64,000 bases of DNA from Marsupella aquatica (taxonomy: Eukaryota; Plantae; Marchantiophyta): assembly GCA_973895155.1 (NCBI GenBank), contig OZ316893.1:14662645-14726644 (forward strand), read 5' to 3'. This document shows positions 1 to 51,554 of this stretch, piece by piece. The notes below the pieces were generated by a model that saw only the letters and a list, made by a program, of their open reading frames with translations, did no database searches and was not told the origin of the DNA. The position numbers and the translations under genes were made by a program. Numbering within the stretch: the stretch's first letter is position 1; each line of letters begins with the position of its first letter.

Positions 1-3000
1 GAGTTGTTGACCTTCCTGCTCCGAAATGTGTTACCAGATGGTAATTCAATTCCAAAAAATATGTACGAGGCTAGGAAATTGATGTCTAACCTTGGGCTGA
101 ACTATGTGTCTATTGACGCATGCCCTGATGGGTGTGTTCTCTTTCGCAAAGAGCATGCAGATAAATTGACATGCCCTCATTGTGGTAAGCACAGGTACAA
201 GAATGTAGGGAAATGTACACACCCTGCCAAGGTTCTTCGTCATTTTCCTCTCATTCCTAGACTACAACGTCTGTTTAGATGCCCTGCCATTTCCAAGCTG
301 ATGACATGGACTCCTGATAACAAGAGCAGTGATGGCCTGCAGCGTCACATTGGAGATTCCAACCATTGGAAATTTGTTGATGAGAGGTGGCCACAGTTTG
401 CTACAGAGAAGCGGAACTTTCGATTTGGTCTATCACTGGATGGAGTAAACCCATTTGGAGACAAAAACAACCGTTATTCATGTTGGCCGGTTACGCTGCT
501 AAATTACAACCTTCCCCCATGGATGACTACAAAGAGGTTTTTTGTCATGATGGTGCTGTTAATCCCTGGACCAGCTTCTGTGACCGAGCAATTCATAGAT
601 ATCATGTTGGCTCCAGCAGTGGAAGAGTGGAAGACTTTGTGGATAGAAGGGGTGTTAACCCATGATGTTCTGAAGGGGCTTCTTCGACCCAGCCCCTTTA
701 GACTGCATGCAATTTGTTTGCTGGATATAGCAGATTACCCAGGCCATGGCATCATATCTGGACGAGTGACAAAGGGCTATGTGGGGTGCACACCATGTGG
801 GAAAAATGTGACAAGTGAGTGGTCGCATGCCCTGCACAGTATGAAATTTCAGGGGCATAGAAGGTATCTGCCTGTTGATCATCCTTACAGGCACACACGG
901 TCTCAAATTGCACACTTCAACAACAAAACAGAGCTTCGTGGCCCACCACAGAGGGTCACCAGAGAGCAAGTCCTGAGGTGGGCAGCCAGGAAGGCTGATT
1001 GGGACAAGAGAAGTGCCACTGATCGAGAACCTGAGGATCCAGTGGTGAAACATGGTGTGAAAAGACAGACCTTGATGGACTTGGAGTTGGAGTACTGGAG
1101 GGTAATGTACTTAGCCTCCAGCCCCTGTATGATTGCAATTTTAGATTGGAGCAATGGTGGATTGATGTTGGTTACAATCCTCCTATGTGGTTAATTAGTG
1201 TTTCTGTTGTTGAATTCTTTGCTTTGTGGAGTGCAGGAATTCGAGCCCAGCAAACACAATGTGGACGTCATGCACATTGAGAAAAATATTTGTGAGAGCT
1301 TGCTGAAGTTCTTGTCGGGTGAGAAAGATACAGGAGCAGTTCGAGCTGATATGCAATAGAAGGGGATTCGCCCTCACCTTTGGTTGAAGCCCCATGCAAG
1401 CAATCCCAATGTACTTCTCAAGTTCCAAGCTCCCTATGTGTGCACACAGGATGAATGGAAGACATTCTTGTATAGATTGAGCTGTCTGAAAGTGCCCTCT
1501 GGCTATGCTGGTGCCTTCAAGAAGCATATTACAAAGAATAAACGTGGCAGTATGAAAACACATGACTACCATGTGTTGATGCAGCACATTCTGCCCCTAT
1601 GCCTCAGAGGTCTCATGCAGAAACCAGTCCGTAATGTCATTCTTCGACTGTGCAATGTATTTCGCCGTATATGTGTGAAAGTGTGGGATCCCCAAGGATT
1701 GGAGCAGTTGAAGCAGGATGCTGCTTATGTCCTCTGTGACTTGGAGATATACTTCCCCCCTGCTTTCTTTGATGTTATGACTCATCTCCTAATCCATGTG
1801 GTAGAAGAGCTAGGGCAGTATGGGCCAGTCAGTACCAGATGGATGTACCCTATGGAGCGATACATGAAGTTGTTGAAAGGTCATGTGAGAACATACTACA
1901 GGCCAGAGGCTTCCATGGCATTGGGGTACATTAAGGATGAGATGTTGGGATTCCTAACAGAGTACATGGCTGGGTCTGGTGAAGCTATGACAAGAGTTTG
2001 GAAATCTGGTGAAGATGATGGAGTGAGTGGCGAGGTTGTTGAAGGTGTGGGACGTGCTGTTCAGCTGCCTGTTGCGATTCGAGACAAGGCTCATTCATAT
2101 GTGCTGGCAAACACAGAGCCTATGCAACCATGGTGGAGGTGAGTGATTGAATTGACTTGCCTTTGTTGTGATGCTTCTTGTCTGTTCCAAGGGTGATCTT
2201 AGATTGTCATGTGTTGTTTAGACTAACTATGCCTGTACCTCATATTGCAGGGAATATGATATGCAAAAAGCTGCACACTCTGGGCAGCAGGATCCCTTCC
2301 CACAGTTCGAGCAGTGGATTCGGGTGACAATTCGAGAGCATAGTAGACATCACCCAGATATGGAGAAGGATTTGTATCTTCTATCTGTGCCACCACGATT
2401 GTCTATTCTGACCTACAAACGGATGAGAGCTTATGGAAATCATTATCGAGTGAGGGATGAGCAGGGTGACCATTGTGTATCATATGATTGTGGTTTGATT
2501 TCTGTGTTTGAGCAGAGAACCTCTAAAGAACAGAGGGGGTGGATGAAGATGGGTTACGTGGGGGAGTTGACCGACATTTGGGTGTTGAATTATGGTAACA
2601 CAAGTGTCCCAGTGATATTGATGAAGGGATCATGGGTGAAATCAGAGTGGCAGAGACCAAGGGCCACCATGAAGCGTGATCATGATGGGTTCTTGTTGGC
2701 CAATTTTAGGTCCAGAGTACCAGAATGGTCTGAGCCTTTTGTTTTCCCTAGCCAAGTTGAACAGGCTTTCTTTGCAGATGTGGAGGAGTCACATGGCTGG
2801 AGGGTGGTATGCCATAGCCAAGCACGGAACAGGCGGATGGATGGAAGTAAAGTAGAGTTCAGTTTGGATGACCATGCTGCATTCGAGCATCCTAGTCATG
2901 AGACTGTACTTCCAACTCGGGCAGGGACTGACTACATCCCCTTAACATTGAGAGAGACATATGATGAACCTGGGCAAATGGAATATGATGAGGTTGATGA

Positions 3001-3010
3001 TTTGCAATAG
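1..3010 (+). pseudogene. CACTA TnpD transposase (Transposase_21 + DUF4218 + DUF4216), 5'-partial, with premature stop
   Basis: Motifs DACPDGCVLF, LRHFPLIPRLQRLF, LSLDGVNPF, YNLPPW, DYP, DVMHIEKN, MKTHDYH, RWMYPMERY, EPFVFPSQVEQ. Exons <1-1101, 1237-2138, 2251-3010 with GT-AG introns; in-frame TAG at 1357-1359 (probably CAG>TAG). Confidence 0.92.
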
Positions 3011-3187
3011 GCAACAGCTGGCGATTGGCAAGTATGAGGTTGAGGATGACTACCTGCACAGAGTCACAGAACGGGAATTGTTGCCTGGAATGATGTTTAG
3101 GATAGTTGGATATGCATGAAATTGATTGATACTTTGAATTTAGTGTGCTGATTCTCCCTGTTTGGTTGTGGGTGCTGTGCAGAAGCT

Positions 3188-6100
3188 ATGGGGGAAGAGG
3201 GTGATGACATGGAGACAGACATGGGGCTTGGAGAGTGGGGTGAAGAGGAAAGATTGGATATGGATGGAGACCCAGATGCAGGGGGCTCACAGAAAAATGC
3301 ACCTATGCAAGATGCACAGGGCCCTCATCAAGTCCCAGGTAGGTGGGCAGCTAGAGAGAAATCACATAATCCATACCTTAGAAGGAGCCAGAGTTATTGG
3401 CAAGGGACGCCTGATAATTATGATGATGACTATGATGGAGTAGAAGATGGATGGGATGAATATGAACACCCAGAGCGTGGTAGAGACGGGTACAGAGGGC
3501 AATGGAAAGGTGAGGAGGATGATTGGACAAGTAAGTGCCTTGTGCTAGTGATTTTGTGATGGTAGTAGAGATTTAGCTCAATATGCACTTATCTGATGTG
3601 TAGCTAGGGCAAAGAGTTTATCTTACAGGTCCATGAGTGTGGCATGTACCTGTTGGTATGCAGACTCTGATTGGGACAATCACGAAAACAACAAAGGCCA
3701 TCCACGTTCAGATAGGAGGCAATCATTCACAGGCGGGAGAAACGCCCCTAATTCATCAAGACAAAGCAATAGGACAGGTGGTCCAGAACCATCTATGCGC
3801 CAAGGGAGAGGTAACTTGGTCATTGCAGAATTGCTCTGAAGTCCACTGTATATTTGGCAGCGGGATTTATGATTCATACTTACCTAATGTAAGTGACTGT
3901 AAATGGATCCTGTAAATGTGCAGGGACTCCAGGGAGGTTTGGACAATGCAATCCAGGCCGTGGGGGGAGATCAGGCCGTGGAGGGACCCCAGGCCGTGGG
4001 GGGACACCAGGCCGTGGAGGGACACCTAGTAGCGCTTCAGGGAGTACCAAGGCAGGAGACAGTAACAAATTTGGTAAAGTAGAAGTGAATTCCGAAGGTT
4101 GGATAACTCCCACATGTGATGGTAAGAACCGTTGGCATTCTGACCTAAGAGGAGAAGTATTGCGTTGGTTAGATTTGAGCATTACAGAGTTTAGGAGTCA
4201 GAACAAAGCTGATTGGGCTGCTATCTGCAAGGACATTCTTGAACGGTGGGAGTATGTTGGTAATGATGGTAAGGGCCCAGTTGAAGATTGCATATCAGAT
4301 TATGCAATGAGGATTTTGAAACAAGAGAGGCATAGGTTGAAAAGGATATGGATAGACAATGGTTCTAACAGGAGAATGCCACCACCCCCATCATTGGAAC
4401 TGGATCAATGGACACGGTTAATCAAAGGGTTCATGTCGGAGGCTGGACAGAGCAAGAGTGAACTGATGTCAAATGCTCGAGGCAAAGTGAAACACCTTTC
4501 ACAGGCTGGGAGAGGAAGTTATGCTCCAGTGAAAGAACAATTGGTAAGGCAGTGACATGCCTGATAGTAAGCCTCAAACTTATCATCTTGCTACCATTAT
4601 TACATTTTCATTGACAATCAACACTTGGTTTCATTCATATGTATGTTGATGTGGACTGCAGAAGAAATTGACAGGTGAAGAACCATCAGCACAAGAAGTG
4701 AGAGAGGAGTTCATGAAACAAAGGAGTGAGGTGACAAGTGTAACTTCCAAACAGGTGATTATGTTGTAATTCTGTATGTTCTGTGACTATTTGGCCTTGA
4801 GCATCAGAAAGAAATGTAGTAGGAAGTAAGCAACCAGTTCTTGGGGACAGTTATCTGAGATATGTAAGCTGTGTTATGACAGGGAACTGTTACAACTCTC
4901 ACAGAGATGTGTGAACGGTTGAAGTCATTAGAGTGTGGACTCCCTCAAGTGGAAAGTAAATTGGCTGATCGTTTGGATATTGTGGAGGCATCTGTAGCGA
5001 ACCTTCTTGCATCAGTGGAATCTAATTTCAAGCTTGTGATTGAAAAATTGGGTGGTTCCCAACCAAACAATGAGGGCAACATTGTACAAAGTGTGCCCTT
5101 GTTAACAAAAAAGGGAATTGGCAAATCTGACACAGGTATGGAAATGACACCGGCCCATTGTTCATTGTGTCCTATGTTCAAATGTTAGAAGTAAGTTTTC
5201 ATGAATTGAGTGAATGGTTTGAATGCAGGAAGAGTGGAGGCAGAGAAGGACCCTGTAATCAGTAAGCAGAAGGCAAGAAGGTTGCTGAGACAGGTAACCT
5301 GCTATGATCCAGTACATTACATTTGAAAAGTGCATGGAGTTTTGTGAAGCTTAAGCCGGTTGGAGGTAATCTTTTCTGTAAGAACTGGTTGGATGAACTG
5401 GGATCTGAAGTGACATCATGATTGATGTATCAGGTGATTCAAAGAGCAATAATGAAGAAGATGTGCCCAGTGCCTCAGTGACCATAGCCAAGGAGGTATC
5501 AGGTAAGCTGATGCTTTAAATTCCTCTATATGAATGTTGAGCAATAATTCAGTGGTTAATAGATTCAACGTGAATATTGTGGTGTGTTTATTGATCAACA
5601 GAAGCAGACATGGAGCATATGGCAATGGCAAAGAAGGGGAAGAAGGCTGTTCATAATGGTAAGGAGATAGTGACAACTTTGTGGTTGGTGACATGTACAT
5701 TTAGCACATGTGATGAGTGATTCACTTATGTTGGACATGACACTGAATTGTAGTTGATGCAGAGTTGACAGACTCTCAACCAAGTGGGAGCAGGGTGAAG
5801 CGACGTCGAAACTTGGGTGCAACATTGGATGCAAGTAAGATTGTAGATGCTTCAATTGAAGCAAGTACAATGTTGGCAGATACTGAGATGATGTCGCAGG
5901 GAAATCCTGCTACACAATCAGAAGTGTCAAATATGGATGCAGATTCTTTGAAGAAGAGTGTAGCCAATTCTCGATCACCAGCACAAAACACTCGTGCCAA
6001 AGTCATGACTCGCAACCAAGGTATGAATAATGTCATGTATAAGCCACCCAGGAAAGCCAAGAAAAATAGCCAGGGTAAGGTGGAGGTGATAGCCACAGCA

Positions 6101-6358
6101 GAGCCAGTCCATAATCTTCTATCATGGGAGGATGACTCGCAGGTATGTGTGGGTACAGGCATTTTGCGACCGGATCATGCAAAATTCCATGGCAAAGTGG
6201 TCCCGGATGACCATGTAGTAGTGTTGTTGACTACAGTGATTGTATCTGATTGTAATTTGCCATTTCCGAATAGAGACGATGATCCACCTCAGGAAATAAT
6301 TGCAGATGCAGTAGGATCTCTTGTGCTCTGGCCATCAGAGTGTGTTAGTCTGCAGTGA
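3188..6358 (+). CDS. Multi-exon TnpA-like accessory gene of CACTA-1 (exon structure approximate, intactness uncertain)
   Basis: Acidic N-terminus, GRGGTP repeats, core exon ~3924-4543 (PPPPSLELDQWTRLI...SELMSNARGKVKHLSQAGRGSY, Transposase_24-like), and C-terminal exon with the En/Spm Tnp1-type signature VGTG...KFHGKVVPDDHVVV...LPFP...DAVGSLVLWP; several short GT-AG-bounded exons between them. Confidence 0.72.
3925..4028 (+). repeat. 18-bp coding tandem repeat (CCAGGCCGTGGRGGGACA-like) encoding GRGGTP
   Basis: About 4-5 imperfect copies visible; translation PGRGGRSGRGGTPGRGGTPGRGGTP. Confidence 0.85.
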
Positions 6359-6859
6359 CTGAATGCAAGTGTAGATAGAATCATGTGAATTGTGTCACAT
6401 TTTGACATTGCCTTGGAAAGATCCAAGAAATATCTGTACCAATTTTTCCATTTGGTAAAGAGGATGAAGGAGCCGTTGTGTGTGACATTGATATTTCTGA
6501 ATTTTGTATGTATGAAACAATTGATTGATGTCAAACTATGGCTCTATGGTGATTGTCTATGATACTTGAATCTGTTTTGTATCATTTCAGTATTAGTGTG
6601 TATGGTATAGAGGAATACTTTGTGACCTTCTTTGTAGTCTATGAAGTTTGAATCTGTGAATTCATATTAGTGTACATGGTATAGAAGATGGCTTTCTGAA
6701 ACTATGTATTCTAATGTTAACATGATGAATGGTGAACTTATAGAGTGAGTTCATTCAAGTACACAATAAAACATGAATGCAATATGTTATTTGTGCACAA
6801 GAGTGGGTTCATTCCAAGTAGTATAGTGGGGTCTTCATCACTCATATCCAGTTGACATG

Positions 6860-7185
6860 AAAGACTTATACATACCCCACAAAGTATATTTAAAGACTAC
6901 CCTCCATAACCTTTTTAGTCGTTCCCAACGATTCACCATCTCAGCCCATAAAAGACTGAAAACGACTCACCAAAGCTACCCACACAAAGACTAAAATAGA
7001 CTGAAAATCCAGTCTATTAAACGACTTATAAACCAGTTCTATAAAGGACTCAGTTGATTATAGTAACAAAACATACGACTCGCAGTCCTATAAAGGACTG
7101 GAGTCCTTCCCAGTCGTTTCCAAGTCCTATACGGTACTGAATAGTCGTTTAATGGGGTCTAAATACCCCCCAGTTTCTACTAGTG
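6860..7185. repeat. Subterminal repeats and right TIR of CACTA-1
   Basis: Many direct and inverted AAAGACT/ACGACT/AGTCGT/TATAAAGGACT motifs followed by the terminal TTTCTACTAGTG. Confidence 0.8.
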
Positions 7186-9906
7186 CATACACATAGTTTA
7201 TGTGACTAAAAGCAGCCACTTCTGCCCCTAACTTCATCACTCTCTTGATTGAATCCAATGGATTTACAAGTTTCTTTCCATTGTGAATAAAATCTTGATC
7301 ATGGAGCCCATAAGCATGAGAGGTTGCTCCAACACTGATCATGGAGTGGGTTAGTAACCATCCTTCCCACCTAAGATTTTGTCTAGGGCCTGGAATTTCT
7401 CTCCCATTGTAGTCTTCTATCATTAATTTCCTTCTTCTTGAGTCCCCATCACTAGCATGGCCCAACAAAGGTCCAACAGCCTCCAAGCAATGGGTGGCCC
7501 ACATTGACTGCAATTGAATCCATTGCTCCCTGACATAATCAGCAGTAAATTGACCACATGTACCAGTGCCCATGGCACAGAGACGAGGAAACTTGTCACA
7601 CAAAGGATTTACCATAATGCACCTAGCTTGGTGCCCTACAACATTAGTGTCAAAGGCCTCTGTAATGTTATTGAAACCAGTTTCACCCTCACCCACTTTT
7701 ATTGCCAGGCCAACACCACAAGTATGATTGTCTTTTTTCCCACAAAACCCAATAAGTGTATCATCCTTAGGCTGCCACCTCACTGTCTTTTTCACACAGG
7801 TTTCATCCTCTGCCAGATAACAAGGAATAGGCCCACATATTCCAAGTTGACTCTTCAGGTTTGAGTAAACCTGAGCAATGAACTTGAATTGTGAAGCATG
7901 CATGCCAGCACGGAAGACAAACATGCCACGCTTGTCTCTTTGTAGAGTGTTCAAACTAGGACCCAAACCATTTGTCTGGAGACAGTCTACTACCCGTCTG
8001 CCACCATGTAGAAACAGTGCTTGGCATAGGAGCTTTGTTCCTTTCCTCCATCGGTGGCCTGCCTTGCTTCGATTCAAGTTAGAAGCAACATCTTGAAGCA
8101 TATCCCATAATGCTTGCCTACCTCCAAAAGCCCCTTTCTTGTGTGCTTGAACAATGGAATTACATAATTTCATTATGTCCTTCCTGTTAATTGCCTCCTT
8201 ACATATCTCTTTCAGAGATGGTTCTTTAGCTGTGAGCATAAGCAAACGGTGTTGAAACCTCCTTGCTAGTTTTCTCTCCTTCCTGATAATTCTATGATAT
8301 TTCTTTGCTTGCTCTTGGACCTCCTCAGTTGTAAGGTAATCTATCCGCCTACCTTGACCTGTCCCTCTTTGACCTCTTTTCTCAACTGCAGTTACCTCTC
8401 TGAACACCCGTAATCTAAAGTCTGTTAGACTAGGTATGGTGAAACAATGGTCACAAGTCAACTTTATAAACCCACCACCAAGCCTTGATATTCTGGTACA
8501 CGATTTATGTCTGAAGAGACCTTCAATGACACAAATTTCATCGATCTCCTCACACCACACTTTGGCCTTCACTAGGGGCTCTGAATATCATAGGCAGTCT
8601 TCTTTATGTTGATCTTTAGGATATTCTTGATAGGCCTGGACTGGTTGCCATATACCCACTCACTTTGCCATAGTCCCCAACACAACAAGGAGAGGTCATC
8701 GTTATTACCTTTGCCTTTATCGGACGATGATAGGCCAGAGGCACTGCTAGAGCCCTGTTGACTCTCCTTGACAGATAGAAACCCCTGAATGGTTTTTTGA
8801 TGTTTAGCCCTCTTATCAGCCTGACGTGGTCATCCTGCACAGCCTGAGAGAATAGTAATATTGCTACTCACTCTTTGGCTTTTAGAAACTACATTTAAAT
8901 GATTGACTCCCACACAGTGAGTCTGGAGATTGGCCTCCAGATTCCGTTGTTTGGGTATCATCACCACATGTTCACAGCAGAAAATGCAGAACAGTTTGAA
9001 CTTGTGCAACTCCATTGGCTCTCTATTGATATCACCAACAATTTTGAAAGTTTTCTGTCCAACAGACTGTGAATCATTCACAGATTCCACTATTTGAACA
9101 TGTTGTTCAAGAGTGGCTTTATCACTCAAGATAGATGCTGCAGCTCGACAACTTATCTCTACAGAGTCCAATCTTTGACCTCTGTTTTTGGCAACATTCC
9201 TGGTATGCGTGGGTGTGATCAAATGCTTATTCTTGAAGTTGGTGAAAGCATTAGTAATGCTGGCTCTGTCCATGCTACCTAACTTTGAGGCACCTTCCAC
9301 ACGAACATCACATTCACAACATTCTATCTTCCCACATGCCACATTCTCAATGTCCCATGTGTTCACCTTCCATTGATGATCCTCACATTGAATGAATTTC
9401 ATGTGATCCCTCAATTTCTCCACTTGTGTTTGCGAGACCTTGGGAAGATCTTTTGTTATACATAAAGACTTGAAACTTGCTTGAGGATCAGTCTCTACCT
9501 CTGGGGTTTCAATGTCCACAATAGGTGGACTTTCTATAATTGGCTGGTCTAGTGGTGGACCTGCCATGACAAGGTCATCCACCGACAAGCTAAAAGTGGG
9601 AGAGAGACCATTGGAAGCTTTGCTGTCTAAGAGAGGTTGATCTTCACCTCCATCCTCAAATTCATATTTGGGAATAACAATGATTTTCTTCCTACATTCA
9701 TCTATGATATGGGCTTTTTCCCATTCCACCTCCATTTGACTATTGAGATTCATATCGTAAAATTGAAACTCAAATTTAAAGAGACACAGAGTCTCTAGCT
9801 TCAATCTGGCATCGGCAAATGTGTCATCAATCTTGTAACTAATGGATCCTACAGGTTTAGGATCCACAGACACATTGTCCAATCGAAAAACAGTTGCTGA
9901 GGGCAT
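7186..9906 (-). pseudogene. Zinc-finger + P-element/THAP9-like DDE transposase gene, decayed and truncated by the CACTA-1 insertion
   Basis: ORFs 8830-9906 and 7186-8572 join through TGA 8830-8832 (likely CGA), a frameshift near 8615 and a TGA near 8588. Motifs YLAEDETCVKKTVRWQPKDDTLIGFCG, GHASDGDSRRRKLM and QDFIHNGKKLVN resemble the P-superfamily DE..IK....Y....D...GF, SD(G) and D..H..K..RN blocks; N-terminal CxxC...H...H fingers. Confidence 0.7.
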
Positions 9907-9979
9907 TTAGTCAAGTCTGCAAAAATTTCACAAAAAAAACAATCAACATCATCCTGAAATTCACTACAACATATTTTGC

Positions 9980-10460
9980 CCTTTTGCGAAGCTCATTTGA
10001 GTCCGGACACACGTTTGCGATTCTAGATGCTTCAAACCGTTGATGACTCAATACGCATCGCAATTTGCGATACTTGTGGTATCGCAACTTTGGTCTTCCA
10101 TGCGATTTGCATCGCAAACATTTTGCGAACTTTATTGTATCACAATAGTTTGCAAAACTACAGAGATTACAAAACACATTACGAAGGCTCCGTGACCGCT
10201 CCGAAAGTCCGAAACCATAGTAACATTAATGATGCGAAACAATTAGTATTGGAGGATGTTTGCGAAAAGGTTAGCTTCAAACAATTTGCGATGGGTTTGT
10301 ATGGCAAATGTGCGAAACGATGTGGATGGTAAAGGTGGGATGGTCTGGATATCGCAAAATAGTGAAGCGTATAGTATGGAATAATTGAGAAACGGTTTAA
10401 ATGGCAGAATTGCGATTTGGTTGGGATTTGTTTAGTTTCGCAAACAGTTTGCAAACGTTT
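9980..10460. repeat. TTGCGA/TCGCAA motif cluster A (upstream of P-like gene)
   Basis: About a dozen copies in both orientations, e.g. TTTTGCGAAG, TCGCAATTTGCGATA, TCGCAAACATTTTGCGAAC, TTCGCAAA. Confidence 0.8.
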
Positions 10461-10861
10461 ATGTTAGACTTGTGTGTGCATCTAGGTTAGAGTTTGAATG
10501 GGGGAGGAGGAGGGAGGGAGGTGAAAGGTGAAAGAGGGAGGAAGGGAGTTGGAAGGTGGATGAGGGACGGAGGAAGAAGGGAGTCCAAAGAGGGTTTACT
10601 AAAAATAGGAGAGACTTTAGCGAAGAGGGAGGGAGGAGAAAAAGCTATGGAGTTTTTGGAAGAGGAAGGAGAGTTTGGGTTCAAAGAGGGAGGAGGGATA
10701 AGGGAGGGAGTACCCATGTCACTTATATGCATGACCTCTTTTGAAAGTAGGAGTCCAAAATGAAAATACCTACCACACTAATGGTGTATAAAATATTAAT
10801 TAAGAAACAACATGAACAATCCATGATATAGATTTTTGGTTTAAATATCCATAAGTGTCTC

Positions 10862-13800
10862 TCATACTTGGTCACCTTCAATGTCCTCTACATCTGACAC
10901 AAAAATAGTGTCTAGCTTGTCTGAAACAATAGAACGAGACCGTGGCACATATGTGATGACAAGTGACCACTCTAGGTCTAAGGGGTATGGAACGTAGAAA
11001 CATTGCTCCAAGTGAGATGGGAAAGTAAATGGCTCTGACGTTTGCCAATGGGATGCTTGAAAACTAGTGGCACTTGTCCTCAACCGTGTAAACCCACTCT
11101 CATCTTGGAGTACAGTGCGATTATTACCAACAAGGTTCACTTTGAACCACTTGCACTTGAAGACATACTCCTCAAACTTAGATTGGTTGTCATATGAGAC
11201 CACCAAAATCTCCTCTATCTTCCCATAGTGTGGCACAACATCACGAACAATGTTCCTGTCATGTCGGCTACTCCGGGAGTCCTGACAAAACTGCCCTTGA
11301 ACTCCACAATCAAAAGTACGAGCCCTCTTCTCATCAAGGGAAGAAATCCTGAAATTAACAAGACCCATATATTGTTACTACTACACAAAAAACACTAATC
11401 ATGTTATGAGGAACCTTTCATACCAAAAGAGAAAAACACACTTATCTTAAGTAAAATGATTACTATATCTTAAGTAGTAGTACATGAATATGGAAAACAA
11501 GGTTAGGAACTAGTGAAACCTGAAGTGTCTCCCTTGGGTCCACATGGCCGTCTTGGATGTTACCACTCTCAAAGGGCCATGAACAATGGTCCGAATGTCA
11601 TTTGTCATAGTAGGAAACTGTGAGACATCTCCTCCTTGTGCCAAAATGCCATCCAACTCAACCAACTTTTCCTTCATAAACTCATGCAACTTAGGAAAAA
11701 TCCTTGCCCTTTGACTCATTCTTTTGGCATTGTCATAAAACTCCCTCCATTCATCCATGACATTGCTATTACTCAACATGAATGTATTCAACTGTGTCCA
11801 CTCTGTTGATGTAAGCATGCGTGTTTTTGTTGCTCCTGTTAAACAGTCCTCCTCTTGCCTCTCCTCCATCCAAGTACGTGGTAAAGTCCGATCAATGGTG
11901 GCCAAGATGTTACTACAATAAAACATGCTCTCTGCAGCCAAGTATCCTGTAGCTATGCTTCCCTCCACTCGTGCACGGTTACGTACATAAGCCTTCAAGA
12001 CTGACATGTAACGCTCAAGCCAGTACATACATCGACAATGAACTGGACCAACAATGGCAACCTCCCTCACAAGATGCACAAGTAAATGAACCTGACAATC
12101 AAAGAAGGAAGGAGGGAGGGCCTTCTCCAACTTGCAAACCACCTCAGCAGCCAATACCTCCATTCCAGGAATCTCTTCCACATATATCTCCTTTGAGCAT
12201 ATCCATCTCAACAAACGACCCAATGACCAAATGGCATCTTGCACTTCTTTGGTCCCCAACCCTATAATTGCCACTGGCAATATATGCTGCAATAAGCGGT
12301 GATAGTCATGTGTCTTGAGATACCGTGGCCATTTGTGATTGTCCTCCATCCCAAAAGCTTTCCTCAAATTGGCACCATAGCCTGTAGGAAACCGCATCTC
12401 CCCTATACGATTCCGGAATTCACGTCTTTGGCCAACACTAAGCACCCAAGGAGCAGAAGGACGATGTTCCAAACCTGTGGCAGGATCAACTTGTACCCAT
12501 ACATCTGGATGCATTTCCAACTCTTCACATGCCTCCCTGAAGTTAGTGTCCTTCTCCCCATAAAAATGAGCTATCAACACCTTCCCCACATTTCCCTCTA
12601 TGTGCATGGGGTCTAAAAGATGGCGGATCTTCAACTCTGACCAATAGGGCAAACTGGCTAGTATACTCCACCTCGTCAACCCAGTACCATCAAAGGTGAG
12701 GGGATCATCAGGGTCTGCCACCCTATCAGCTAGTGACTTCCAATGCCCAAAAGTTGTTGGTTCCGGAATTTCCCGCATATCACCAAGGGGCATGTCAAAG
12801 GAGGAAAATAAAAGTGGGTCAGACCTCATCTCATGCCCCATCGGAAGAAACTTTGTATGCCCAATGTAAACAATCTTCCTAAGCCATGGGGACCAAATTG
12901 CCATATCTTGCAATTGTGGACCACAGGTGGAGCAAGCTTTGTACCCCTGAGTTTGCAATCCAGAGACAAAGCCAAACCCTGGTTACACCAAAAATAAAAC
13001 CAGACTAAATGTTAGGGTTGTCACATGACAAACAAGTATATTAAAGAGCATATCAAAGAAGGGTGGCATATGGTCAAAAAGTCATCTTACCAGGATAGTC
13101 ATGCATTGTCCAACAAACTACCCCTCTCAATTTAAATACACGTGGAATGCCTCCTATATTTTTCCTGCCATCGTATGCCCACACTCCACCCCACAGTTTT
13201 TGGAGTTCTCCAATCAATAGTGCCAAATAAGTGTCAAAGTTCTTCACCTTTTTTGGACCTGGAATAATCAAAGACAGCAAGAGGAACCCCTTCTTCATGG
13301 ATAGCCATGGTGGAAGGTTGTAATTCATCACAACCACAGGCCAAACTGATGTAGGTCTTCCCTTGCCTCCAAGGGCATGAGGACTAACCCCATCAGATGC
13401 CAATCCCAACCTCACATGACGAGGATCATGTGCAAAGTCTGGCCATGTTTCCTCAATATGTTTGACTGCAGGAGAGTCAATTGGCAACCGCATAACACCA
13501 GGCTCTGATCGATGAGTCTTATGCCATACCATCAACTCTGCCAAATCAGAACACCTGTACATGTGCAACAATCGAGGAATGATGGGAAACCAACGAACAA
13601 CTTTTCTTGGCACCTTCTTTGTAATCATGTTGGGGTCATACCATGGCTCATGACATTCAGTACACTGTGTCTTCTTCTCATCGGCCCCATGAAATAACAT
13701 GCAATCATTCACACATGCATGAATGATATGATATTCCATGCCAATTGATGAGAGAACACGCTTGGCCTCCTTCCAAGTTCCTGACAACACATTGCCAGAA

Positions 13801-14275
13801 GGTAACATAAGGTCATGGCAAAGTGCAAACATATCAGATAACAAGGCATTGCTTGCCTTGTGTTTGGCCTGTAGATTCATCAACCCCAAGATAGCAGAAA
13901 GACGACTCAAACGAGCACCCTCATAGATAAGAGTTCGGGCATGTTCCTCTGCTTCCTCCCATTGGCGCTGTCCCTCAGGGGTATGTCTTGGTCGTGGATC
14001 ATTGGGGGGCACATGACCTCCTTGATCAGCAGACACCTCAGCATCATCACCAGGGATGTCAACACCAAACCAATCAACCATAAAATCATCCATGGCTCTA
14101 TCTTGGTCATCAATAACCTGTTCATATGTTCTGGGTACATTGCGATCAGGGTTGTTGCTTCCACTGTCACTTGATGAGGAATGTGACTCAGAGCCTTTCC
14201 TTCTTCCGGCATACCCATTTCCCGATATGCTGCTCTCAATCTCCGCGGTAACATATTTTGAGAGGGTCGCACATT
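10862..14275 (-). pseudogene. CACTA-2 TnpD transposase (Transposase_21, DUF4218, DUF4216); probable 1-nt frameshift near 14197
   Basis: Exons ~14275-13091, 12978-11520, 11348-10862 joined by in-phase GT-AG introns; motifs HACVNDCMLF, FPIIPRL, LASDGVSP, YNLPPW, HDYPG, DPMHIEGN, LKTHDYH, MYWLERY, EPFTFPSHLEQCFY. The first coding exon is probably the TAD exon 15569-15336. Confidence 0.88.
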
Positions 14276-14418
14276 CTAAAAACAATGCAAACAATTGAAA
14301 GTTACAAAGCAAATAGTTACAACATGTAGAAGAATATATGGGGGTGTGCAAACATGAAATAATATCGGTACTAGTGTAAATACAAAATGTGGCCAAACGC
14401 CATGTGTATGGTCATTTT

Positions 14419-15569
14419 CTAATCCCACACATAGTGAGTAAACAACTCATCACCTGAGTGAATGGTCCTAGTAGCTACAACCAGACAATGGTCATGATGA
14501 TATGTCTGGCCATAAGGGGCTGGTGGAGGACCCTCAATGAAAACCCACTCACAATTTTGCCTACGCTTGGGGCGAGTCCCCACAGTACTGTTTATGAAAC
14601 CAGCTATATTCCCAATTCGTATGGGGTCCCCATCTATCACCCGCTGCTCACTATACCTCCTAGTGTTTCCATCAAAAGTATCTAACTCCAAGGCATAAGT
14701 CTTCCACTCAGGATGTTGTGCAAGGATCATGTTCCAATGTCTTCTCTTGTAGATGGGTCCACCATAAGGAAACAACGTAGGTCCTTCTCGACCGCGTCCA
14801 CCACTACCACTCTCGGTATCCACAATGATGTCTTCACAAGCAAAAACTCCATAGCCATGTCTATCCCCAAGTGTGGAAGGTTTGATAACCCAACGTCTTC
14901 CCCAAACCTCTACCTCCTCACCATAGGAAAGCTCTTGTGGCAAACCAAGAGTCTGGGGATCCCAGTCCTTGATGATAGGAACACATTTGCCAGTAAACTC
15001 ACAATCACCCCACCTACCGGTAACCACTGCCTTGTACAAATCAGTATCCCCTTGGGGCCGTCTCTTGGAACGCTTTCTCCCTCTTGGGACAACAGGCTCA
15101 CCCCCAACTACCCTAGGACTGGAGGGGGCTGTTGCTAGACCCAAGGCTTGTGAGAATGCATTGCCTATAGCATCTAGAACACCTTGTGATGGGACATAAG
15201 GTGCTGATGCCGCAGGTCTAGGCCTACTAGATACCTATTCCACCCAAACCAAAACAAACAACGAGAGGTGTGAAATTAAAAACCTTCACCATTGCGATGT
15301 GGAAATAGGGTAGAAACTAAGGCGTAAACACTTACCACATGGGATGAGGAAGCCCCTGTTGTATGACGTCCGTAACGTCCATATCTCTCAATATGCTGGG
15401 TGCATATATAGGACTTTTGGGAAACCTGACCCACACATTTGGCACATTGGCAAAGCTGACGGGGTGGACCACGAGGAGGAGGTGCAGTCGTGTGAGGTTG
15501 AGGAGGAGGTGGTATATCTTCATCGGAGGAGGAAGAATCTGTGGTGGAGATCTCAGAAGATGAAGACAT
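14419..15569 (-). CDS. TAD + SET-domain protein (putative lysine methyltransferase), exons 15569-15336 and 15234-14419, 349 aa
   Basis: Exon 1 has CQCAKC...CTQHIERYG (CACTA transposase-associated domain pattern CxCxxC...H...G). A 101-nt phase-0 intron GTAAG...AATAG joins it in frame to an open exon with SET motifs IKPST..HGYGVFA.EDI, PYGG, IDG....GNIAGFINS, NCE, VVATRTIHSGDELFTHY. Confidence 0.85.
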
Positions 15570-15999
15570 TGCCCCTACAAAGATGTATAATTTGCAAGTT
15601 AGGGGTTATTACCAAATAACATCACAATATCAAGCTGGACAAATGTAAGTTCTCAAGTAATGATGACATGAAACCAAACACAAAAGGAACACTAAAAAAT
15701 ACCTTTCTGAGACCCAGGCTCAGCGGTGCCAATTAATAGGTCTTGTGGCTCTAAAATAATGAACCGAATCTGGAAGTATGAGAAAAGCTGCAAGTACACA
15801 AAGCGAACACCTTACATACATGTCCTCTTCATAGATAGTGGGAACCAAAATTTTTAATTACATGAATAAGCCTAACTAGACCCATCTATTTTAGTCCGTA
15901 CCTCCAGATGCCCGGGCTCTCACGATGCATACGCATTAGCTAGTATCAATTCATGCAAAAGTGCCGCACCCTGCAAGTTGTCATAGCTCCTCCTCCTTT

Positions 16000-16470
16000 G
16001 TTAGCATAAAACCCATGGAAAAACCATTAAAACCCAAAAGATCCATAAAACCCATTAAAACCCATAAAACCCATGGTAAAACAACTAAAACATTAATCTC
16101 ATCTAACCTTGCTTTGCCTTTTCCAAACCCTCACCCCCAAACCTCTGACCTATTACAAAAACCTAGACCCTCACTCCCAATCCCCTTCCTCTCTTTTGTT
16201 TTAAACCCTAAACCCTTGCTTGAACCCTAAAAGCCTACAACCATAAATGCAAACCCTGCTTAAACCCAAAATTAAAGACTTAAACCCTAAACCCAAACCC
16301 AACTTTAATCCTAAACCCTTTCCTCACTTATTAATTTTAAACCAAAACCCAACTCTTATCAAAATTAGCCTACACCCACACCATGTATAGCTTAAAAACC
16401 GGAAGGTTTGACTGGTAATCTCGCTTTTAACCCCTAACAAAACCAGCTTCATCCAAGACCCAACCCTAAC
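16000..16470. promoter_or_regulatory. AAACCC/AAACCCTA (telobox-like)-rich divergent promoter region between TAD/SET/TnpD and TnpA genes
   Basis: Numerous AAAACCC and AAACCCTAA motifs between two divergently oriented genes; promoter role is inferred. Confidence 0.4.
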
Positions 16471-16609
16471 AAACGCCGGGATTTGAAACGGCGGAATTTC
16501 TTAATTACACAAAAGGGCATAGTATAACTTACATGGCCTAAACAAAAGGAGGAGGGAAAGAATGTGAAAAAAAATTTTGCCAGGAATTGCCACGATATTG
16601 AGAACTGAC

Positions 16610-16830
16610 CTGCTTCGCAACCTGCTTCAGAATTTGGTCACATTATTTGCGAAGCACAATGTTTCACAACAGCTTCGGAAAAACAGAGCCCAAGAGCGTT
16701 TTTTCGCGTCTCTGCAGCTTTGCGAAGGCTTTGCGAAGCGTGTGGTTTTGCATTGGTTTTGGAAAGTTGAGATACTAGTTGCGAAGCAGGCTGATTCGCA
16801 AATTGCGATGCGGACTGCATCGCAAATGTG
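16610..16830. repeat. TTGCGA/TCGCAA motif cluster B (upstream of TnpA-like gene)
   Basis: TTCGCAA, several TTGCGAAG, TTCGCAAATTGCGAT, TCGCAAA. Confidence 0.8.
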
Positions 16831-16939
16831 TTTTGTCTGGGCATTCGGACCTTCCCGCCGGGTTACGAGGCCCATTCGACGTTTTTTGAAGTGAGGGAGG
16901 GCAGGAGGAGAGCTTGCGCGCGCTTGGTGTTGGATAGCT

Positions 16940-19005
16940 ATGGATTCTAGTGGAGGGCGTGGAGGGGATGGGGCAGGGGCAAGTGGGAGTGGGAGTGGGA
17001 GTGGCAATGGCAATGGAGGGAACAGGAATGAGGAGAGTAATCAATGGACGAATTTGATGGCCGAGCATCTCAATGCCACACAGCTGAGCCATTTGGATTT
17101 GAGTACACTAGCTGGGATTGCTTCTTTGAGTGCAATTCTAGGGCAAGCTTTGCAAACCGGGGTTGCAGCAGGGCAGGCTCAGAGGGAGAAAGAGGCAAAG
17201 GCTGCAGCTGAGGAGAAGGCCAGAGAGAAGAAACGAAAGAAGGAGGAGAGGGCTAAGGCAGGAGTACTCTCTCCTGCAGCCCTCAAAAATAAGAGGAGAA
17301 GGGAGGAACGAGATGAGATTCGAGCACAACGTGAGGCGCAGCGGAAAAAGGAGGAAGAGAGGAAGAAGCTGCCATTGATTGCCTTGGTTGAGGGCATTCC
17401 TACTGAGTTGGCCTACACTGGGGCAAAGAGCACTATCAGGCTTGCTGTGAGGACTAGCTTTGCATGAGGTGTTGAGTGGGGGAAACTAAGCAGAGCAGAG
17501 CAGAGGAAAGTAATGACTCAGGTCAAAGATTCATTCAGAAATGGAGCAGAGATTGATGACCAGTGGCTTGCAGATAGAATTTCGAATTCAATGTCTCAAG
17601 CACGATACCATGATAGGAGGAAGGTGAGGGCCTACCTAGCAAGCTTGCAGGAGTACAGGAACGTGAGGATGCCAGTGCAATTCACAAAGGATGTGTGGAA
17701 CGCGTTCTATAAGGTCGAGGTGCAGCTGAAAGTAGCCAAGGACCTCCAATTCTGGAAGGAGAAGGAGGCCAAGGCACTTCAGGCCGGGAAGTCAGACAAA
17801 GACCTCAAGGCATTGGCTGAGAAGGTCTCTCAGCTGCAGCACATCGTGGATGAAGTGGGGACACCACCCCAGAAGTTCATCCTTGCAGCAAACCGAGTCA
17901 GCAAATGCCCCAAGACCACACACAAGATGGGGCAAGGTGGACTTCCCAGCCTGAAAGCAACCTTCGTGAGTCCTCTCCCCTCCTCCCCTGCTTCTTTTCC
18001 TTTGCCTTCAACTGTTGTTTGCTTGCCTGCAATGCCCCTCGCTGACCTCTGCTTTACCCCTTATGGCCTCCCCTTTCGTTTTAGGTCACCCTGACACATT
18101 GCGTGCCTTAGTCATTTCTCGGATTTTTTTAAAAGCACAGTTTGCGAAACAATTGCGAAGCGGGTTGCCTTGCAATTGTTTCGCAAACTCTATTATAACC
18201 TTTTTCCCGTAAGGTTTGCGAAGCCATTGCGAAGCAATCCGATTCGCAGTCTATTTCACAAACTTAAATATATTTGAATTTGCGAAGGTGGGACTTTCGC
18301 AAAGCTTGTTTCATTTTGAAAAACGTTTAGTGTCGAGTGACAAATGTTTGTTAGGGTAATGGGGTTTTTTTCTGGTTAGGGTACCCTTTTTACCCTTTTT
18401 AGGATTCCTTTTTTGCTTAAGTACCCTTAGTTACTAACCCGGGCCCCTTATGTTTTGGTGTTTCATTTTTTTGTGGTAGTATAAGAGGTACCGCCGCAAG
18501 ATAACAACAAAGGAGATGGAGATAGGGGCAGAGCATGGGGCCAGACATCTCTTTGAGTTGGTTGATGCAGAGTTGGCTAGTGTGAGTGATTTGTAGTACC
18601 CTTTCTAAACCCGCACCCATTCCATTTATAAGGTTTATACATTTTTCCTATTAACCCTAAACCCGAATTAACCTTGTGACATGGAAGCAGGATAAGGAGG
18701 AGCAGGAGGGGAGTGAGGATAGCAGTGAGGAGGATAGCGGCGCTGATGATGGGGACACTACCGGGGCCACCACGAGTGGGTCCAGAGGGGCAGGGAGTGT
18801 TGCCACACCTAGCACACCAGGAGACCAGGAGGATGATGATGAGGATGATGACGATGATGAGGATGAGCCAGATGGGGAGGAGCAACAGGCACCACCACCA
18901 CCGCCACCACCACCACCACCCCCCTCCCATCCAGCTTGTCCCGCCCAAAGCAAGAAGGACAAGGGAAAGAGGCCAGCAAAGAGGAGTAGGCGAGCTCCAT
19001 TCTAG
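16940..19005 (+). pseudogene. TnpA-like accessory gene of CACTA-2; exons ~16940-17965, 18480-18581, 18691-19005; in-frame TGA at 17465
   Basis: ORFs 16940-17467 and 17513-18094 are in the same frame across one TGA (likely CGA); basic coiled-coil, helical core, KTTHKMGQGG (En/Spm Transposase_24-like H..G..G), acidic/Pro-rich last exon; GTGAG donors and TAG/CAG acceptors. Confidence 0.62.
18130..18305. repeat. TTGCGA/TCGCAA motif cluster C (intron of TnpA-like gene)
   Basis: TTTGCGAAACAATTGCGAAG, TTCGCAAAC, TTTGCGAAG, TTGCGAAG, TTCGCAAAG. Confidence 0.8.
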
Positions 19006-19219
19006 AGGATGCAGATGTAGTTCACTCCATATGGCATATGGATTAGTCAAAGGACAGTGTCTTGGTATTTGATACCCCATAGGGTTTTAGAAAACCCTAA
19101 TTTTTGTACATTCAGGGATTTTTGGCATATATAAAGTTTTGCTTTGGTATCTTCATGTGGAGCAATAAGACCCCAACCCAATTATGAACCCAAATATACA
19201 AAACCCAGCCCTCAAACTA

Positions 19220-19792
19220 TCCTTGCGAAACACATGCGAACGCCATACTATCGCAAACTTGCCATACATTGAGTATTGGAACATTGCGATACTTTTGGTT
19301 CCGCAATTGTGCGACACCCTGACTGACGCAGTTATGCGATACCATATGAATGGCAACGGAATTGTCAAGACAACAGCTTCGCAAATAAGTTATGGTTTAG
19401 AGCGCGTCGCAAACCGATAAAGAGTCTGTCGAGATCGCATAAATGTGATTTATGTGCGATAAAATAAGTTTCGCAGTGTGCGAAGGTGTTGCAAAGGGGT
19501 TGCGAAAGTCCGATTGCGAAGCTGTGGGTTTCAAAGAATGCGAAAGGGTTGTGATGCGTAGCGTTTCGCAAACGCTGGAATTTCATAATTTGGTCCTTTG
19601 TTAGTTGCGATGGGACAGGGTTCGCAAAAGGGGTTGGTAGTGTTGTAGTGATTGTTTCATGGGATAGACTTTCCATTGAAAGAGAATATTTTCTATAGAC
19701 ACAGACCTAAAGAGAACCCAATGATTTGAAGACCATATTCACAGGACCAATCCCAAGAGAGCCTTGCCCCATCCCGGCCATTTCTCCTAGTG
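19220..19792. repeat. Subterminal TTGCGA/TCGCAA cluster D and TIR of CACTA-2
   Basis: Dense motif copies in both orientations at 19220-19630, then terminal TTTCTCCTAGTG. Confidence 0.85.
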
Positions 19793-22700
19793 ACTGGCTG
19801 GTAAGAGCCATGCAGCTTTCTCCGACTATAGTCGGGTGGGAAGGGACGTACCCTTTGCTGGCAAGGACTCCTGCTTCAATGTAAGCACAAGAAGGTATGG
19901 GATCTGCAAATGTCCAATTGTGCTAGACATGTGCAGTCGGGGCCAGGCCCTCCACTCCAATCCCTCTCCTCCAACATGGTGTACCCTGTAAATTAATTCA
20001 TTGACTCACTCAAAAAAGTTCTGACTTAGAGCATACACCTTGGACCACCCAAACTATATGACTGGCTCTAACTCTCATTGCCATTGGTGATCAAATCCAA
20101 GCCCCCCCTCTCCCAGGCAACCTGCCTCTCCTTCAAGGAGCGCTAGACAACTGGTGATAAAATCCAGTAGTCTCCACCAGGGGCATTACTTCCCTGGGGT
20201 CTCACTTGAATTCAAGAAACCTGCAAACCCACACTTGCAATAGCAAAAAGACAAAACTGAAAGGAAAACATAAAGAACATATCTGTCTACTCTTACCATA
20301 GTTTGCCAAATGCCAACATACCTTGTCGTTAAAGCTCATACTCAAGTCCAAAATGCAAGGAAGAAAAATGAGGTAGCAAAAAACTGGAGATTAATAGGTG
20401 ACCACTAACCTCTCTGGCCCTGCTCCAAGTACTCTGTTGAATACCCAACCAAGTTTTACTGCAGAGCAACTGCTGACCACACGAACAACATCAGAGGACA
20501 AAAACTAAAAAATCATGTCGAGAGAGCATTAGATGCAGTTTACATTTGAGTACACACCTAAACAACAAGAAAAGGCAACCCCTTCTTAAAAAAACCGGAG
20601 CAAGAATTGAATTACTTAATCAAATGATTCAATGAGAACTTGCCCCAAGGGAGAATCCCACAGCAAGCACCCGTCCTCTAGATCACAGCTCTCCTTCTAG
20701 GTTACAAAATGCTGCAGGGCAATGATAAAGATATTGTAAAATATCTACTGTAGCAACCCAACTACCATGCAACAATCCAACTACCATGCAACAGCTCTAC
20801 AATGCCATAAATAAACTGGGGGCAATAAGGGAGGCAATAGGGAGACACTGCCGGTACAGTAGTCAAGGGAGTCAAGGGACTGTTTTGGAGCGGCTTGTGA
20901 GGGACACCAATCAGTAAGTAGTGCTCGAGACTGATTTCACGCAGACGGGCACAAATTCATCCAGGACAGCAAGCCACCTCCTCGCTTGACTTCCCAACTT
21001 GAGAGTTGAGAGAGCTAGAGAACGTGGGAAGCTAGAGAACGAGGCTAGGGGAGAAAGAGTAGATTCACTAAATGAGTCTGCAAAATGTTGTCATCAACTA
21101 GGAGGTTCCACCTGTCAAATGAATGGAGGAGGCAGTTGGGTAGTGCGACTCACGCTTAGCCTTCCCAGCTCTGGCTCATTCCTATACTCCATTTCAACGA
21201 ACATGCCATTTCAGTCACATCCCGACTCCTGCAGGCCTCATCGACATTTCAATATTCATTGGCGAAGGTGTTGTTATGTTGCCATCTCTGAAGCTTGCCG
21301 TAATTGATTAACCATAGTTTCCCGACCTTAATTTCTTGTGTCCCGTGCACTGGCCGTCGTAATGTATAATTACCTGCACAAAATTGGTTCCAGTTTCGGG
21401 AAATAGGTTAGACACAGTTATTTCTGCTACCCACTAACAAAAGCTTTGTACAATTGAACGACAGAGTGCAGTTATACAACATATGTATTTGCTGCAAAAA
21501 AGCCGATCCACTTATCTAGGAATAATAGATCGTTGTCTACATGAATGGATTCAATCAGTATCTGGAACCTACGCCAGGGAGCGCTGGTATTGTCGACGAG
21601 GTGAGTTCACCATGATGAAAACCAGGTCGGATTCGCTGCAGGGAGTCAGAATTAGGTCCTCCTCCGCCAATGATTAGTTATCGTGCTTGTCCATGAGATC
21701 TACTATGAAGGCCGCCTTCAATCAACGTAAGTGTTCACATCCTATGGACGGTATGTACTCTCATCTTTGTTGTCCATTAAGCTTGGTGCCCTACGTCGTT
21801 GGCAATTGTGCATTTCATCGGGCACTTTATACTTGTGGCTAGCAATTCGAACTGAATTTCAAGATAATATGGGCATGCAAGATCGTGTCGAAAACATGAC
21901 TGTGTGGAGGTGCACGTCGCTATTACATAGAATAAATTTGTAGAATTGCTGCATTAAGGTACCCGCTATTTCTCCAGTTCATTGTGCATGTGGCAACTCA
22001 AACTACTTCAACACGATTCAATAGCAGAGCCTGTTGGGAATTGCTTCATACTCTTCGGAACTCTTGACCCCAGGTAGGAATTACAATTCAAAGGTTTCGT
22101 TAGATCAATGACGAAATCAAAGTCGAGAAAACTGAGAACGGGCTACAGGATACAACAGCGATTCCTGACTAGAACATTGTGGTAACCATTCTTGAAGACC
22201 CCATTTGAACAGATTTTTGACTTTCGGAGTCACTTGTCTACCATACGAAGACTTTGGTGACTAGTTGTTGCAAATCCTCAGAGCTAAAACGTTTTAAAGG
22301 TGGTGCCACTGAAAGAAGCTGGCTCATTGTCACAGGCGAGAAAATGCCGTGCAATACAAGTGAAACCATTCAAAGGAGTAAGAACAATAAAGAGCAACAT
22401 TGCAAACGCAGTCAAACTATTTCAAATGATACATTCTAACGAGTTTCATTTGGTCTCTCTAGTTTAGAGATTGAGCACAGTTCCACCAAAATAACGTCAC
22501 TTATTAGGCAACTCCAAGAGCATTACCCGAAAGCTGTAACAACTAGTTGTATACAGCCATTATCATTCCTCTCTTTCAACGGATAGATAGAACCAACTAT
22601 TGTCCCCGTAAATATCTTCTGCCCTTGCCTTGCGCAAAAATGCCGCTTCAAGACCGCGTGAGCTCCTCCTTCCTAATGGTCCCTCGCCCACTTCCCCCCA

Positions 22701-24270: not shown

Positions 24271-24446
24271 GAGGACCATCCCCTACCTTCCTAAGCAGCG
24301 TGGTCTTCCTTCCAAGAATGCTCTTCTTCGTCCCTTCGAAGTGGCGCCAGCATCAGTACGAGGACCATCCCCTACCTTCCTAAGCAGCATGGTCTTCCTT
24401 CCAAGAACGCTCTTCCTCGTCCCTTCGAAGTGGCGCCAGCATCAGT
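24271..24446 (+). repeat. 89-bp tandem duplication
   Basis: GAGGACCATCCCCTACCTTCCTAAGCAGC...GTGGCGCCAGCATCAGT present twice, starting at 24271 and 24360. Confidence 0.9.
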
Positions 24447-24870
24447 CTTCCAAGAAGGTGCCAACATCCCCAACATCATGTTCAAACACTCCCCATCATC
24501 AGTTCAAACACTCCCTCGATCTATAGCTCAATACCAATAAAACAAATCTCAGCCGTCTAATAAATTCTCCAAAAGTGTACTTATTATAGGCACGTATTGA
24601 GGCACATATTAAACCATGTCCACTCTACAATATCTAGACATGTGTAGCAATCCGGCACTGATGTGTGGCAAGCCCATATTAGGTACCCTTGCAAAATGCG
24701 ACTTGAGATATTTTTTTAATAACCCCTACATTCATTATAATCAAAAGCATCATTAAATAGGGGCTTCTTAGTTTGTAAACAATTATAACAATTAGTCAAA
24801 AATGGGATTAAAAAACCCCTTGAGATGTTCGCACGAGGGGTCCCGTATTAGTTAAGCTAAGGGCCCAGGG

Positions 24871-25890: not shown

Positions 25891-25990
25891 GTTTGAGTGG
25901 AGGGCTAGGTTAGGAATATTTCATACCTGCAAGGAATATTAGTATGGAATGGCTTAGAATAGTAGATTATGCTCGGGAAATTTTTAAATT

Positions 25991-26140
25991 TGTGGACGCT
26001 TCCTGAAGCGTCCACACTAGAGAGCCAGATCTGTGGGCCGCTTTCTGAAGTGTCCATGAGATAATACGACACTTTTGGGAGGCGTCCGCCTGCTGACTCG
26101 GGATTTCCGTCCGGATTTGGGCCGCTTTCTGAAGCGTCCA
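25991..26140. repeat. Cluster 1 of palindromic GGACGCTT-YCTG-AAGCGTCC repeats
   Basis: TGTGGACGCTTCCTGAAGCGTCCACA at 25991-26016 plus two or three degenerate copies. Confidence 0.85.
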
Positions 26141-44319: not shown

Positions 44320-44329
44320 TAGTTGAACC

Positions 44330-51365: not shown

Positions 51366-51554
51366 GGTACAATTAGCAATATCCCAGGGATAGTCTAGGG
51401 TACCTACCCTGTTTTGTCACCAATGTGTTCATGATAATAAATATGAAATGTTCCTGCATTTCTTGCTCTCTTTCAAGACTATATAACATGATCTGTTCCA
51501 AAAATGGTCATAGTAGATCTGTGTCTGGGATACAATATTTATGTTGTATTCACA

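Follow-up and report, generated by a model that had tools for sequence, protein, structure and literature searches.

The stretch of Marsupella aquatica DNA analyzed here (64,000 nucleotides; hereafter the window) very probably contains a defunct element of the P superfamily. The element is likely an independent cut-and-paste transposon and has taken two CACTA insertions, one ending at position 7185 and the other spanning 9962–19650. Its P-like transposase pseudogene (7186–9906, minus strand) equals residues 1–929 of a protein of ~1,500 amino acids and is cut short by the first of these elements, CACTA-1. The gene begins with an ATG at 9906 and runs to 7187 on the minus strand in three frames, 9906–8833, 8829–8575 and 8587–7187. 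Its best protein match is a 1,529-residue protein of the liverwort Calypogeia fissa (P0001, E 3e-206), with which it is collinear over residues 1–929 at an identity of 47% in the N-terminal half and 62–65% in the core. Alignment with this protein locates a premature in-frame stop at 8830–8832 and a frameshift zone at 8588–8602 (both minus strand) and, with stop, frameshift and the cut made by CACTA-1, the window gene is a dead copy.

The EDETCVKK..RWQPKDDTLIGF, SDGD and QDFIHNGKKLVN blocks quoted in a preliminary description of this DNA are present in the minus-strand gene (9906–7187), and the two putative catalytic aspartates that it took to be retained are indeed there. The first (EDET; codon 7807–7805, minus strand) aligns with Asp230 of the P transposase in the profile, and the second (SDGD; codon 7450–7448, minus strand) is an aspartate in all 70 of 70 family rows. 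The D(2)H motif, which marks the start of the insertion domain, occupies 7283–7294 on the same strand, with its Asp and His codons at 7294 and 7285. Because the CACTA end at 7185 cuts the frame just past D(2)H, the catalytic glutamate and ~600 C-terminal residues are absent from the window copy.

That the gene encodes a P-type transposase, as first proposed from the letters of the window, is supported by predicted fold, profile, language-model neighbors and motif conservation. We used an AlphaFold model (mean pLDDT 72) of P0007, a relative that is 44% identical to the window core. Foldseek matched this model to the Drosophila P transposase structure 6p5a with an E of 6.6e-11 and a TM of 0.72 (RAG1, 3.8e-5), and VIA gave a Z of 23.5 and an rmsd of 3.6 over 404 of 442 aligned residues; the next best family was Transib, at Z 10.4, and RAG1 and Hermes also fell well below 6p5a. 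The match of the predicted model covers the HTH, the RNase H and the insertion domain, at a structural identity of only 13–15%. A 70-sequence profile ranked 6p5a first among PDB sequences (E 0.0012), with the family's QDxxH aligned to D339-x2-H342, and searches of the PDB sequences with the window core and with a 24-row profile did not find the P transposase. The nearest clusters to the core in the ESM Atlas were mostly from Basidiomycota (scores 0.96–0.97), and P-transposase clusters scored 0.95–0.96.

Among ungapped family rows the catalytic triad is conserved throughout (first Asp 68/68, second Asp 70/70, Glu 69/69), and in the D(2)H motif that follows the second Asp the aspartate is kept in 68 and the histidine in 70 of 70 rows. 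Pfam was far less sensitive: its P models were passed by none of the 23 nearest relatives (window core, E 0.16) and the P-HTH model PF12017 by one of 42 further relatives, with sub-threshold PF21787 and PF21788 hits falling at the expected places. The same scans of the window and its relatives returned no KDZ row, although Pfam barely detects this family. The evidence thus supports placing the lineage in the P superfamily, with a predicted P-type HTH, split RNase H and helical insertion domain, in which it resembles the Drosophila P transposase (6p5a/6pe2) and THAP9. It also shares with the P element and THAP9 the DDE triad, the D(2)H motif as defined in PMC3698922, an 8-bp target site duplication (TSD), within the 7–8 bp of the superfamily, and short terminal inverted repeats (TIRs), the values for P being those given in PMC7776569 and PMC3698922. 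In three distant members (P0019, P0121 and P0122), additional Tudor, SAP or C1 domains at the C-terminus pass the Pfam cut-offs.

The family departs from the P element and THAP9 at its N-terminus, where the THAP domain is missing and a predicted ubiquitin-like domain and two C2H2-like fingers stand in its place. No THAP domain was seen in Pfam scans of the window and relatives, or by pattern in the window N-terminus. A model of the N-terminal 358 residues of the window protein (pLDDT 80) consists of a β-grasp domain, a linker and two C2H2-like repeats. The β-grasp domain (residues 1–80; 9667–9906, minus strand; pLDDT ~95) gave a best VIA Z of 8.3 (rmsd 2.6, 70 aligned), with most rows ubiquitin-like, and Foldseek returned no hit for it at E ≤ 0.001; we treat the predicted ubiquitin-like fold as a lead and not as proof of kinship. 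The two repeats (CxxC..H-x5-H; 8899–9321, minus strand) would bind zinc and DNA. The only matches to the zinc-finger region were to a ribosome-hibernation-factor-like fold (Z ~7), which we read as a common arrangement and set aside, and an ESM Atlas search with the N-terminal part gave no usable hit.

In the family, the full-length protein of ~1,500 residues has an extra C-terminal part compared with the P element and THAP9, and its catalytic core carries a Cys/His insert between the first two aspartates. These are 119 residues apart in the family compared to 73 in the fly enzyme, and near-invariant C303, H309, C311 and C365 lie between them. Eight residues that contact GTP in the P transposase are listed in PMC7776569. 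When mapped through a weak stretch of the alignment (i-Evalue 63), the equivalent of D528 is Asp in 60 of 69 rows and that of S409 is Ser in 31 of 69; through the same weak stretch, the equivalents of K385, K400, F443 and N447 are mostly changed and that of D444 is Asp in 12 of 69. Most GTP-contact residues therefore appear changed relative to the P element, as far as this weak alignment allows them to be paired.

The P superfamily has CA..TG termini, and the ends of this family start instead with C-[TCA]-N-GGGGG. As the predicted fold, the DDE triad, D(2)H and the TSD agree with the P superfamily, and the THAP domain and the CA..TG termini are lacking, we file the lineage as a divergent variant of that superfamily and not within the fly P family. 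THAP domains are described as confined to animals in PMC7776569, so their absence is no criterion for non-animal members.

According to the preliminary description, the transposase gene rode inside a CACTA element. The nesting is the reverse: CACTA elements landed in and beside the P-like gene. CACTA-1 (1–7185, plus strand; TnpD at 1–3010 and a TnpA-like frame at 3893–4555) is inserted in the P-like catalytic domain, its right end at 7185 and its left end beyond the window. CACTA-2 (9962–19650) is complete and flanked by an ATT duplication, and comprises TnpD (10862–14411, minus strand), a SET-domain ORF (14419–15234, minus strand) and a TnpA-like ORF that had no match in a Pfam scan. A scan for CACTA ends found the first 10 bp identical at 9962 and 19650, with ATT on both sides, and the subterminal 6-mer occurs 12 times in 9962–10461 and 10 times in 19151–19650 compared to once in 7186–9961. 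The P-like ATG sits 55 bp outside the CACTA-2 end at 9962. Because CACTA-2 extends from 9962 to 19650 with its ATT duplication, the P-like gene is excluded from it; the interval between 9906 and the TnpD stop at 10862, in which the preliminary description saw no TIR belonging to the gene, contains the start of the CACTA TIR at 9962, which with the ATT TSD separates the gene from TnpD.

Contigs from four public runs (X1, X3, X4 and X5), aligned over window positions 5500–24500, recorded the empty CACTA-2 site. In X1 and X3, which come from two studies, a joint leads from 9958 to 19651 and skips 9,692 bp, with three letters that fit both sides; it is seen in one contig per run, its 27-letter short side is 85% alike and it belongs to an error-prone class. 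The joint was not listed for X4 or X5 among the four runs, and one run may be the source of the window itself. The join at 19651 means that the upstream region of the P-like gene continues past CACTA-2 on the minus strand from 19651, perhaps as far as 24870, a weakly supported candidate end. In X4 a contig begins exactly at 9962 (10 differences in 1,000 bases), as expected of a young, multi-copy CACTA-2 with varied flanks, and the summed contig depth, a rough measure, is 610–12,218 over the CACTA-2 core compared to 255–448 over the P-like gene.

The SET-domain ORF between TnpD and the TnpA-like ORF (PF00856, E 5e-6) is deeply covered by contigs in all four runs and looks like the real CACTA passenger here; carried by a young transposon, a gene of histone methyltransferase type could influence silencing. 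A literature search on the combination of CACTA and SET found nothing.

These observations bear on the reading under which the P-like transposase was captured as cargo of CACTA-2 or forms a composite element with it. It draws on the position of the gene, on the strand of TnpD and less than 1 kb from the TnpD stop, and on the fact that CACTA-2 does bear a passenger-like SET ORF, but a CACTA TIR and TSD stand between the gene and TnpD, the site is empty in two of the four runs, and, by the rough measure of contig depth in X4, the CACTA-2 core is covered much more deeply than the gene. Nor are homologues always linked to CACTA, a point raised in the preliminary description: among 51 related loci from a metagenome scan, several of them near-duplicates of one another, none was hit when ten CACTA proteins of the window served as queries (E ≤ 1e-3). 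Flanks of 2 kb or more are available on one side for 21 of these loci, and the other 30 have less than 2 kb on both sides. CACTA/EnSpm elements are neighbors only, and neither their ends, nor their 3-bp TSD, nor the Transposase_21, DUF4218 and DUF4216 domains belong to the P-like gene. Since a homologue, L001, carries TIRs of its own and an 8-bp TSD, which the preliminary description had itself named as evidence against cargo, the cargo reading is refuted in its own terms and we consider it extremely unlikely.

L001 provides the best view of the family's own ends, with perfect 26-bp TIRs (192–6287), a perfect 8-bp TSD and a single frame of 1,520 codons between them. An inverted-repeat scan that took in 31 loci found TIRs together with a TSD in this one; in L003 a comparable pair of TIRs lacks a TSD. 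Within the window a 287-bp MITE (26627–26913) has G-rich TIRs, of whose first 15 bases 13 match, and a perfect 8-bp TSD, GGCGAACC. A profile of eight homologue ends, none from the window, ranked 26914–26848, the end of this MITE, first in the window (E 0.0023), and the 8-mer at its flanks occurs only twice in the 64 kb, once at each MITE end. The ends resemble those of the family's autonomous elements, and by this resemblance the MITE may belong with them. Common to the family ends are a run of G bases, the motif ACT and, 35–37 bp inside, a CGTGC-like motif; both TSD-anchored elements, L001 and the MITE, begin with CTC or CTA followed by the G run, and a CA start is found in two of the 12 listed ends. 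Because contigs that differ by ~11–14% from the P-like gene occur in three runs (X1, X3 and X4), the family is multi-copy.

The ends of the window copy itself are less clear. Its 3′ end lies beyond the window, and TIR and TSD are known from L001 and the MITE and not from this copy. A regular expression for the G run, modeled on the end of L001, detected no TIR in the window sequence upstream of the P-like gene, and a G run at 20102–20108, considered as a 5′ end, was dropped as it was scored by no end profile. Position 24870 is a weak candidate for the 5′ end. The L003 end aligns there with a score of 45 compared to a maximum of 34 in 30 shuffles, and the position is the sole match in the window to a pattern that was written after seeing it and that fits three of the eight training ends; a Gypsy integrase profile match that starts just past it also speaks for the position. 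Against it, no end-profile hit fell there at E ≤ 20. Contigs aligned on 19655–23654 revealed no element boundary. Directly past CACTA-2, 19655–20200 is a high-copy repeat fragment with many divergent relatives in the four runs, and other copies of the 19655–23654 region lack 23010–23330 and further stretches.

The remainder of the window is rich in other repeats. The MITE sits within a Gypsy-type element (24878–30760) in which a fragment of the integrase precedes a palindrome-like 20-mer, present at least nine times, and more ORF fragments, and fragments resembling, by eye, a Copia-type reverse transcriptase/RNase H lie at 31842–32557 on the plus strand. Long inverted repeats at 32890–33111 and 45945–46164, 13 kb apart with a BTB-BACK gene (37039–38310) between them, represent a pair of MITE copies in opposite orientation or else an element that carries a gene. 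Two related MITE-like repeats of ~400 bp (43927–44322 and 56926–57305) have internal palindromes and are ~85% alike. The region 47740–56721, an 82-nt inverted repeat pair (96%) around disrupted ORFs that match SWIM weakly (E 0.0027), is probably a Mutator-like element, and within it lies a 41-nt perfect inverted repeat at 54170–54210 and 55688–55728.

A profile search recovered 902 clusters at E ≤ 1e-30 among 1.84 billion representatives, and no relative of the P-like gene was found in viral contigs. Among the best 120 of 125 relatives, the named organisms are the liverworts Calypogeia and Riccia sorocarpa, the fern Adiantum nelumboides and the coral Desmophyllum; no seed plant is named among these 120, in a search over the 7,996 best word-sharing candidates. 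We built a tree of 76 rows by a quick method, with SH-aLRT supports and without bootstrap, leaving out P0104 and P0301 as too short. In it the window groups with Calypogeia (100) and every named plant row falls in one 18-row clade (SH-aLRT 98; organism names are lacking for 12 of the 18 rows), the fern group being placed next to the liverworts. The host BTB-BACK gene of the window is 91% identical to the Calypogeia protein and 68% to that of Ceratodon, which points to a leafy liverwort as the probable host. In both comparisons available, the transposase has kept less identity than the host gene (Calypogeia, 65% versus 91%; Adiantum, 39% versus 63%). The plant lineage thus looks old and, as we infer from these sequence comparisons, vertically inherited. 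Loss in seed plants would follow from their absence among these relatives.

We saw no sign that the lineage arrived recently by horizontal transfer from an animal, a fungus or an alga, for which the preliminary description had suggested a check of taxonomic distribution. Relatives do exist in a coral and the nearest Atlas clusters are mostly from Basidiomycota, but the coral protein is only 26–34% identical, the plant rows form one clade that tracks host groups, and the transposase is more diverged than the host gene, and we judge such an arrival to be very unlikely; a much older transfer, into an ancestor of the land plants, may have taken place. We give similarly little credence to a single-copy plant gene domesticated from a P transposase, like THAP9, and pseudogenized here. 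Long intact ORFs in several hosts and the window copy, on which no TIR is proven, would suit a domesticated gene, but it is hard to reconcile with the several divergent copies per run, the many partial paralogues in Riccia and Adiantum, the TIRs and TSD of L001 and the MITE in the window.

A larger, though still minor, share of our belief goes to a sister superfamily, related to P and working without GTP, to which the G-rich ends, the lack of THAP, the Cys/His insert and the altered GTP pocket would belong. The low structural identity to 6p5a, the wider spacing of the first two aspartates, the near-invariant cysteines and histidine between them and the changed equivalents of K385, K400, F443, N447 and, in most rows, D444 all speak for such a separation. 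Against it, the predicted fold match spans the HTH, RNase H and insertion domain, the 8-bp TSD and D(2)H are kept, the D528 equivalent is Asp in most rows, and the mapping of the GTP residues comes from the weak alignment stretch; a separate superfamily is, on balance, unlikely. Within the P superfamily, where we place the family, a more specific history can be proposed tentatively, and we think it somewhat improbable in its full form: an ancient P clade, mobile in land plants since before the liverwort–fern split and lost in seed plants, in which THAP was replaced by the ubiquitin-like domain and tandem zinc fingers, a Cys/His metal site was gained in the RNase H, the ends became G-rich and transposition proceeded without GTP.

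Intact members would consist of one ORF of ~1,500 residues between short G-rich TIRs, the layout seen in L001, encoding an enzyme with a predicted P-type HTH, split RNase H and helical insertion and the conserved D-D-E triad. The HTH and the two zinc fingers may take the place of THAP in binding the ends, perhaps at the CGTGC-like motif seen 35–37 bp inside each end. Judging by the fold, the element would be excised and reinserted with an 8-bp stagger, in keeping with the 8-bp TSD seen twice; PMC7776569 gives a 17-nt staggered donor cleavage as a feature of the P superfamily. MITEs such as 26627–26913, which share these ends, may be mobilized in trans.

Green algae also host the P superfamily. 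By neighbor score, not alignment, the nearest language-model neighbors are the P-like transposases of Basidiomycota in the ESM Atlas (0.96–0.97), which likewise lack a common Pfam family and which we take to be those labeled 'P-Fungi'; P elements in fungi are listed as single occurrences in PMC5751038. GingerRoot, a DNA transposon described in PMC6839031, has a like host pattern, being known from non-seed plants and from aquatic animals, corals among them, and not found in flowering plants, but differs in its integrase-like transposase, 6-bp TSD, 100–150-bp TIRs and reported absence from ferns. The lists of plant DNA-transposon superfamilies in PMC9033089 and PMC6839031 name hAT, CACTA, Mutator, PIF/Harbinger, Tc1/mariner, Helitron and Sola, and P is absent from them. 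Our search of papers found no description of land-plant P elements, and the lineage may already be filed in Repbase or Dfam. Host ranges for P are given in the figures and supplements of bioRxiv 10.1101/2021.09.26.461848, which may list plant hosts.

P-type transposons would thereby join those recognized in land plants, and a lineage of P type whose autonomous elements and MITEs occur in liverworts and ferns would lengthen the list of plant superfamilies and explain repeats that Pfam leaves unnamed. As a P enzyme that lacks THAP and whose GTP pocket seems altered, the transposase of this family lends itself to mechanistic comparison, and a GTP-free lineage, if such it is, would provide a natural experiment on the GTP requirement of the fly enzyme. 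The window copy itself is dead, and the family may yet possibly yield a native transposon tool for non-seed plants.
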